Assembly: GCF_003334335.1 (NCBI RefSeq)
Contig: NZ_QOWQ01000067.1
Reading direction: 5' to 3' (one strand)
Source of the DNA: Escherichia coli
Lineage (GTDB): Bacteria; Pseudomonadota; Gammaproteobacteria; Enterobacterales; Enterobacteriaceae
Length of the DNA stretch: 9,120 nucleotides
Each line of letters begins with the position of its first letter. Positions within the stretch are counted from its first letter, which is position 1. Both the position numbers and the translations under genes were made by a program. Shown here one piece after another: positions 1,859-3,291 of the stretch. Under the pieces are notes generated by a model that was not told the DNA's origin, made no database searches, and worked only from the letters and a program-made list of their open reading frames with translations.

Positions 1859-2871
1859 TATCTGATAACAAAGTTACCTATCATGAGGTTGACTTCCTGC
1901 TGCCAGCACAGAGGTTTAACATTCAGTTTTCCTATGTTTCCCAGAAGGGGCTGCCATTTATCCGGGAGTTTGTGCTGAGACTGGTTCATGTAGCTTCGAT
2001 GAGCAAAGCACAAATAGCAACCTATTTCGGCCTGACCCACCGTGAGACAGAGGAGGCGATTTCCGATCTTGTGCAGCGTGGCGAATTGACGCTCTCCTCA
2101 GACGGCAGACTGGCCTTAACAGACAAATCAAATGGCTATTTTTCAGAGGTTGGCGAGATACCGCATCTTTCAACTATTCAGGACAGTGGCTGTACTTTAT
2201 CCTTTGATTTAGCCACATTTAGTTGCTTCAGCAACCAGGCTTTTCAGGACCACTGGAGGGGAGGGGTAACATTAAAGGTTGATGACAACAACATTTCTCA
2301 AAGTGAGAAACTGGTTGAGAAGCACTTTCAATACCAGTTTAATCAAATCCTGGATAAAGGTTACCTGTCTCACCTGCAGGTTCAGGTCGGAAAAGAACAA
2401 CCTTCTATCTATACCGTTAATTCTGTTAATAAGCTGCGGCAAATACCACTCCGTTTAACAACGGAATTTAAAATGGATAGCGATGGTAAGGCTGTCGAGC
2501 GTGAAGACTATGAACAGTTAAATAGTTCGGAATGTGTTCATGAGTTAATGGCTGTTGAGATAGCCAGGTTATCACGGCATAACAATACCATGAGTATTTT
2601 TAAGGCCATGCAATCCATTAACGATGACCTTACGCTTAAGCTGTTTGACTCTAAAACGAATCGACTTAATCCGTTGTTTATCAAAGATATGCAAGCACTG
2701 GAAGAATACTCGTCCTCAGGCAGAACGACTTTTTTAGGTCCGGTTTATTCTAAAAACAACTGGGAAAAGCTGCAGAAAGCTCTGGCACCAGCGCTCAATC
2801 AGCGTATCAGAGATAAAACTGATTATGGAGGTAGCCCGTTCATCTGGGTGGCACCATCAGATCCCTACTGA
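1855..2871 (+). CDS. Hypothetical protein, helicase partner; N-terminal winged-helix/HTH-like segment
   Basis: 338-aa ORF whose ATG overlaps the helicase stop (ATGA at 1855-1858), indicating translational coupling. GGAGG at 1841-1845 sits 9 nt upstream. Residues ~35-90 (FIREFVLRLVHVASMSKAQIATYFGLTHRETEEAISDLVQRGELTLSSDGRLALTDK) have a helix-turn-helix plus wing pattern. No HxKxxxxD (PLD) or other catalytic motif recognised by eye. Confidence 0.7.
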
Positions 2872-2952
2872 TCAAAAAGCATTCGATTTATCTCAAGCCT
2901 GAGCAATTTTCTTAGCAAGTCGGCTACGAAGGATAAGCAGCTGTATAAACCG

Positions 2953-3291
2953 GTGCTGTACGTACCTGTCCGGGATGCAGCTGATGCTCGGGTTGCCAGA
3001 CAGTGGAAGTATGAACTTGGGCAATTCCATGAGTACGCTAAAGGACTAGTTGAGGGGCTGTTAGATGGTAATGTTGAGATCCTTCATCTTGAGGATGAGT
3101 TATCTGCCGTTATCTATCATATTTCTCAACCCGAAATATTGCCTGTAACGATGCCACTGGGCTTTATCACAACGAACAAAGAAACGGTTAAGATTATTGG
3201 TACTCTGGTTACTGAATATATCAAAGGCACCACTGGTTTTGATAAGTTTCATGACTGTGGCGCAATTTCGGCAATGATTAAGAAAGGTTGA
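2953..3291 (+). CDS. Hypothetical ORF; possibly the C-terminal continuation of 1855..2871 interrupted by an in-frame TGA
   Basis: Same frame as 1855..2871. The 27 codons straight after the TGA (2869-2871) are stop-free and run into this ORF, giving ~140 open codons in AT-rich DNA. There is no ATG and no convincing SD near the GTG at 2953. Protein-like composition. Confidence 0.35.

Follow-up and report, generated by a model that had tools for sequence, protein, structure and literature searches.

An in-frame TGA at codon 339 of mkoB in a decaying type I Mokosh locus of Escherichia coli

An Escherichia coli contig presents two adjacent reading frames of 338 and 112 codons that lie in the same frame and are parted by a TGA. 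The arrangement poses the question of whether these are two genes, one gene interrupted by a nonsense mutation or a sequencing error, or one gene whose stop codon is read through to give two isoforms. We analyzed the whole 9,120-nucleotide stretch in which they lie (the complete contig QOWQ01000067.1 of assembly GCA_003334335.1), referred to here as the window.

The reading frame around the TGA

The open-reading-frame table and direct reading of the sequence agree that the ATG at 1855 opens a frame of 338 codons terminated by the TGA at 2869-2871. As the preliminary description of this DNA had stated, the same frame stays open up to 3291; exact reading gives 139 stop-free codons (2872-3288), closed by the TGA at 3289-3291. 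The open frame past the first TGA is non-random. Shuffling left this 417-nt stretch free of stops in only 13 of 100,000 cases (P = 1.9e-4 under a composition model), and the remaining two frames of the same stretch contain 5 and 18 stops. The first canonical start past the TGA is the GTG at 2953, which opens the listed 112-aa frame. No AGGAGG-like Shine-Dalgarno (SD) motif is found 5-12 nt 5' of this GTG, and the nearest candidate, GAAGGA, is 19-24 nt away. Two earlier statements, that the downstream frame has no convincing SD and that the region is AT-rich, are thus borne out: the GTG has none at a useful spacing, and the mkoB region has 43% GC, low for E. coli, compared with 54.5% for positions 3771-8366. 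The features of the locus are collected in Table 1.

Table 1. Coordinates of the Mokosh locus in the window
Feature	Position	Strand	Remarks
IS100 (IS21-family), terminal 77 bases	1..77		inserted in mkoA; contig ends inside the repeat
mkoA 3' fragment	78..1858	+	approximately codons 1060-1652 of 1652; Upf1-like SF1 helicase part
SD of mkoB	1839-1844	+	GGGAGG
mkoB, translated part	1855..2868	+	codons 1-338; MarR-like winged helix (residues ~35-93) and N-terminal lobe
Premature stop TGA	2869..2871	+	G-to-A transition at 2871 in the Trp339 codon TGG
mkoB 3' remnant, predicted untranslated	2872..3291	+	codons 340-478 and native stop TGA 3289-3291; encodes most of the PLD-like C-terminal domain, including E408, H422, P434 and G436
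112-aa 'ORF'	2953..3291	+	begins at the internal Val367 GTG of mkoB

The window between 1855 and 3291 is, very probably, one gene, mkoB, in which a G-to-A transition has made the conserved Trp339 codon TGG into TGA. In strain NCTC86 the site reads TGG and lies within a single 1437-nt coding sequence annotated by RefSeq (WP_000622487.1, 478 aa). In a 161-base alignment at the site, TGA versus TGG is the sole difference between the window and NCTC86, and across the whole 9 kb the two differ by four real SNPs and one homopolymer indel. So few differences (~4 SNPs in 9 kb) argue that the nonsense event is recent, and its recency would explain why the downstream frame is still clean. The region is present in approximately 312 of 5426 complete E. 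coli genomes. A 61-mer with TGG at the site has an exact match in 290 of 301 complete-genome E. coli records, among which the 61-mer of the window, with TGA, has none. A 30-mer centered on the site gives the same picture: the TGG version, which served as the positive control, was found in 293 records, which represent 292 genomes out of the 300 complete ones with the locus, and the TGA version is absent from complete E. coli genomes. Three sampled records with another SNP near the site keep the 478-aa coding sequence. The suggestion that an ancestral protein of ~478 aa was hit by a nonsense mutation therefore agrees with the TGG codon and the single 478-aa coding sequence of close relatives.

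Homologues of the protein lead to the same conclusion. The preliminary description had proposed aligning 1855..3291 with homologues; those that we aligned are single proteins of 452-498 aa that span the TGA site, and the opposite pattern named there, of homologues ending at the equivalent of 2871 and a tail with independent homologues, was not found. The best 120 matches of a search over 5.8 billion proteins are mostly 470-500 aa in length and cover 97-100% of the 478-aa query, with a few shorter partial entries as exceptions. In the list of representatives from a library of 50%-identity clusters, most full-length ones (~440-540 aa) align over residues ~5-470. In the alignment of 68 homologues, whose identity goes down to 17%, the column of Trp339 holds W in 65 sequences and R, Y or F in the rest. 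Of six invariant columns, three (E408, P434 and G436) fall past the stop, as does H422, which is retained in 63 of the 68 sequences, and alignments A2 and A3 span residues 340-478, which establishes C-terminal homology for the region behind the TGA.

The 112-aa ORF is the undegraded tail of mkoB and not an independent gene. An independent gene was considered and rejected, as the frame is that of mkoB and no SD precedes it. P0200, a 112-aa protein that looks like a homologue, is an artefact of gene calling, its open frame being cut by a contig edge. The 112-aa product is called only beside upstream lesions of mkoB, those that give upstream products of 338, 348 or 299 aa. Likewise we found no natural short MkoB that ends near residue 338. 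The 338-aa protein P0198, from a marine metagenome, diverges just past the conserved YW, 29 nt from its contig end and beside a split mkoA, and is either an artefact or another pseudogene; P0047, P0104 and P0071 are partial or frameshifted. In the protein collection, the cluster at 90% identity that holds MkoB (cluster 1) also contains 1652-aa MkoA sequences and has an MkoA as its representative, so that its counts mix the two proteins and are unusable as counts of MkoB.

The type I Mokosh operon and its lesions

The two frames and the gene upstream of them are mkoB and mkoA of the type I Mokosh anti-phage system. Mokosh combines a helicase with a PLD nuclease, and in type I the helicase gene also encodes a kinase domain (10.1101/2022.05.11.491447). 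The intact MkoA of NCTC86 (L001:5830-10788, 1652 aa) matches the PADLOC MkoA model PDLC03921 over 1-1648 (E = 0, 2204 bits). With NCBIfam it gives PglW/MAD6 kinase-like and IGHMBP2/Upf1-type helicase matches, and Pfam AAA_11/AAA_12 are recorded on called mkoA products; the intact allele thus encodes both the helicase and the kinase-like part of a type I MkoA. The adjacent, co-oriented partner is recognized by the MkoB model: the intact MkoB of NCTC86 aligns through residues 3-472 with positions 4-452 of the 454 in PADLOC profile PDLC03923 (E = 1.9e-151), and NCBIfam gives no match for MkoB. Hence the locus resembles type I Mokosh in its two-gene operon, in which a large kinase-like/Upf1-like SF1 helicase protein is followed by a partner with a PLD-type fold, and in the end-to-end match of both intact alleles to their PADLOC models. 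The stop codon of mkoA (TGA, 1856-1858) overlaps the ATG of mkoB as ATGA (1855-1858), a gene overlap typical of coupled operon partners. The gene order in NCTC86 is a 4959-nt 'AAA domain-containing protein' gene, the 1437-nt 'hypothetical' gene whose start it overlaps, and a fragment of a 16S rRNA methyltransferase gene.

The copies in the window differ from type I Mokosh in being broken, mkoA by IS100 and mkoB by W339*. Positions 1-77 match the end of the IS100 annotated in strain 300444 (L002 8756-8832) at 100% identity. Homology to the mkoA of NCTC86 restarts at position 78, at approximately codon 1060 and just before the helicase core; the upstream 'helicase' frame is only a 3' fragment of the 1652-codon gene, as IS100 cuts mkoA. 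The identical IS100 point is also where five further assemblies from this lineage break off. The junction between IS100 and mkoA is absent from complete E. coli genomes, which places the lineage of the source strain outside the RefSeq complete genomes. With both genes disrupted, this copy of Mokosh is predicted to be inactive. The preliminary description had suggested that the module may be partly inactivated, which is right but understates the damage, since the helicase gene is interrupted as well. Strain 300444 itself carries a second, independent IS100 in mkoA, at the window equivalent of 944-948 with a 5-bp target duplication (copy at L002 6879-8832).

Comparison of the homologues also shows what the stop takes away. 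With the last 140 residues of MkoB, W339* removes the larger part of the PLD-like domain and the residues best conserved in the family. The invariant G436 follows H422 at a distance of 14 residues, the spacing from H to G in the motif HxK(x)4D(x)6G, and two distant homologues have a full HxKxxxxD at the position of H422. On these grounds we infer that residues ~290-478 form a PLD-like catalytic-type lobe, approximately three quarters of which would be deleted by a stop at codon 339. In E. coli MkoB the K and D of HxK(x)4D are replaced, and H422 alone is retained from the HKD motif. Pfam finds no PLDc in the E. coli protein alone or in the 68 homologues, with only weak winged-helix matches in both cases, and a search of PDB sequences with MkoB returns weak MarR matches only. 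The other MkoB subtype, PDLC03922, has in common only the N-terminal ~250 residues. The invariant E408, P434 and G436 form a signature of the PDLC03923 subtype's own (intact copy L001:10785-12221, residues 290-478).

The published MkoB is a PLD nuclease, and defence is lost in its active-site mutants (Millman et al. 2022, bioRxiv 10.1101/2022.05.11.491447). The PDLC03923 subtype, unlike the published protein, has neither a canonical HxK(x)4D nor a Pfam PLDc match, and the subtype mutated in that study may be a different one. A 'nuclease' role for the lost domain is accordingly putative, by analogy of fold and by the general statements published on Mokosh. Compared with PLD-superfamily nucleases and pseudo-enzymes (Nuc/NucT, Zucchini/PLD6, vaccinia F13 and FAM83), at 8-12% identity, E. 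coli MkoB has the K and D of the motif replaced and a winged helix inserted in its N-terminal part. This winged-helix, PLD-like subtype with the histidine only is relevant to the planning of active-site mutants of type I Mokosh.

Carriers of the allele and the order of the lesions

The exact 338-aa product occurs in 18 contigs and the wild-type 478-aa protein in at least 1000; for the 112-aa product the index of the collection lists 58 blocks. The locus is intact in most carriers, with sporadic decay elsewhere. More than 12 independent assemblies or sequencing runs carry the TGA allele, some of them with intact mkoA, which marks it as a reproducible allele and not a read or assembly error. DNA identical to the window is present in GCA_002190205.1, GCA_049547825.1, SRR1815430 and SRR30938087, and SRR7230379 is one base off; correspondingly, of the contigs L004, L005 and L008-L010, four match the window at 100% identity across 3.6-8.8 kb, and the fifth has one base different. 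A sister group (L015, L017-L020 and L024) has the lineage marker A1155, the TGA and T2251 (H133Y), and no IS100 at the site seen in the window. Four of its members (L015, L017, L019 and L024) combine A1155 and the TGA with a full-length mkoA of 1652 or 1656 aa, and in the other two (L018 and L020) small insertions have frameshifted mkoA beside the TGA allele. As the TGA is common to relatives with intact mkoA, parsimony places the nonsense mutation before IS100, and the stop codon appears to be the older of the two lesions.

The TGA is also found once on another background. Contig L006 (Logan ERR12509622_137) carries it on an AHB6-like mkoA haplotype, at least 15 SNPs from the window lineage, and is possibly a recurrence, a recombinant or a chimeric contig. 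The allele has lasted long enough to form two sub-lineages and is seen once on this different haplotype, which leaves some room for tolerance or even selection. Other, independent lesions of mkoB occur in further assemblies. In L016 and L022 one A is lost from the A5 run at 2874-2878, three bases past the Trp339 codon, giving a 348-aa product, a frameshift allele absent from the complete genomes searched; in L023 an extra T in the T-run near 2729 gives a product of 299 aa.

The relatives supply a sense codon in an uninterrupted coding sequence, the homologues supply C-terminal homology past the stop, and the allele is reproducible, as in any nonsense pseudogene. The locus is an ordinary decaying, pseudogenised defence locus, that is, a pseudogene of an already known kind in a known system. 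It has in common with ordinary pseudogenes made by nonsense mutation and IS insertion a single transition in a conserved sense codon, an intact frame behind it and further lesions in the operon, and differs from them in nothing material. The following course of events would account for it. MkoB is the winged-helix and PLD-like partner of the MkoA kinase-helicase, encoded in an AT-rich island of some E. coli. The G-to-A change in the Trp339 codon, which halts translation past residue 338, would have come first, and the truncated MkoB would be unable to act as the effector of the system, so that Mokosh would be dead. Later, IS100 would have entered mkoA in the sub-lineage of the window, as one would expect once selection on the gene had ceased. 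Such a course makes the locus a small, clean case of stepwise decay in a defence island, with the nonsense mutation in the effector partner first and the IS or frameshift lesions in the sensor helicase after it. For annotation, a single dead mkoB gene underlies both 'hypothetical proteins' deposited for this lineage, of 338 and 112 aa, and programs that find defence systems should score the locus as a non-functional Mokosh.

The first alternative is that the truncation is tolerated or selected, either because the 338-aa winged-helix fragment is functional (for example in binding MkoA or nucleic acid) or because loss of a costly or autoimmune effector is advantageous, and that the allele has spread or arisen twice. 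The TGA lies close to a module boundary, so the fragment might fold and keep some binding, and the four sister-group contigs with intact mkoA and the single occurrence on the clearly different haplotype of L006 are consistent with such a benefit. Contig breaks add a weak hint of G/A polymorphism within samples, as codon 338 is the end of three contigs and six begin exactly 30 nt before the site, where control codons give 2 and 2. This enrichment of contig starts is small, however, and recombination or a chimeric contig may lie behind L006. The IS100 and frameshift lesions that accrue in mkoA of the same lineage (L003-L005, L008-L010, L018 and L020) are what neutral decay predicts, the mkoB lesions elsewhere argue that codon 339 is not special, and no natural homologue terminates here, P0198 and P0200 being edge artefacts. 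We regard a tolerated or selected truncation as unlikely.

A more specific form of selection would make use of the stop codon itself. UGA is the leakiest of the stop codons and is most often misread by tRNA-Trp, and the W339* allele may therefore still yield traces of wild-type MkoB. UGA at a Trp codon is, moreover, the one nonsense change that a near-cognate tRNA-Trp can decode as the wild-type residue. It is conceivable, though quite improbable, that selection has favored the UGA as a leaky means of down-tuning a costly PLD-like effector, with a trace of full-length MkoB left. If this were true, the two haplotypes and the possible G/A polymorphism within samples would reflect recurrent selection at codon 339.

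Programmed recoding, by which UGA readthrough or selenocysteine insertion would yield a short and a long MkoB by design, is very improbable. The readthrough and two-isoform options of the preliminary description had in their favor the 139-codon open frame and the fact that misreading by tRNA-Trp would restore the ancestral residue. The likeness to selenocysteine or readthrough genes ends, however, with an in-frame UGA and an open frame behind it. The stop is not conserved, as at least 292 of 300 genomes read TGG at the site and 65 of 68 homologues have Trp there, and the small distance from NCTC86 (~4 SNPs in 9 kb) accounts for the open frame. No signal is seen 3' of the UGA. Rfam finds no family at its gathering threshold over the window, and 81 nt of RNA spanning the UGA and its 3' flank fold with a minimum free energy of -11.1 kcal/mol compared with a shuffle mean of -13.5 (z = +0.88), that is, with no excess of structure, SECIS-like or other. 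The next base is U, and context studies in E. coli make UGA followed by U a comparatively efficient terminator. That the A at 2871 is a sequencing or assembly error, with TGG as the true sequence and the gene intact, has next to no credibility: the difference is a single base and no complete RefSeq E. coli genome has the TGA, but the same A recurs in the independent assemblies and runs from different projects, a sister sub-lineage marked by T2251 shares it, the 338-aa and the 112-aa products have separate protein records at NCBI, and the site is outside any homopolymer. The pseudogene reading, of one mkoB interrupted by a nonsense mutation, is the one that we retain.

Surroundings of the locus

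Upstream of mkoA in NCTC86 (L001 4604-5645) we find an 'inovirus-type Gp2 protein' gene and a frameshifted pseudogene of a 'TOTE conflict system archaeo-eukaryotic primase', which suggests that the Mokosh operon sits in a mosaic mobile or defence island; IS elements and further pseudogenes are also present in the neighborhood of the locus in that strain. Downstream of mkoB, positions 3288-3602 of the window hold a fragment similar to the C-terminus of a 16S rRNA methyltransferase (RsmI-like), which RefSeq lists among the pseudogenes, with an internal stop. This fragment has the look of a scar left by island insertion or rearrangement.

Farther along the contig, the minus-strand gene at 3771-5684 encodes a secreted protein of 629-637 aa (WP_000757210.1) for which the RefSeq names clash ('enterotoxin' versus 'alpha-galactosidase'), and it stands in an operon-like row with MalY/PatB and MalX-like PTS genes. 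At 8410-8418 the window has T9 where NCTC86 has T8, either a real frameshift or a homopolymer error. The change in the T-run alters the 5' end of the malX-like PTS EIICB gene (minus strand), which encodes 501 or 506 aa here versus 523 aa in NCTC86; the length classes of this gene recur in other assemblies. At 8547-8951, also on the minus strand, lies a remnant of a class II fructose-bisphosphate aldolase gene, which the NCTC86 annotation gives as two pseudogene pieces.
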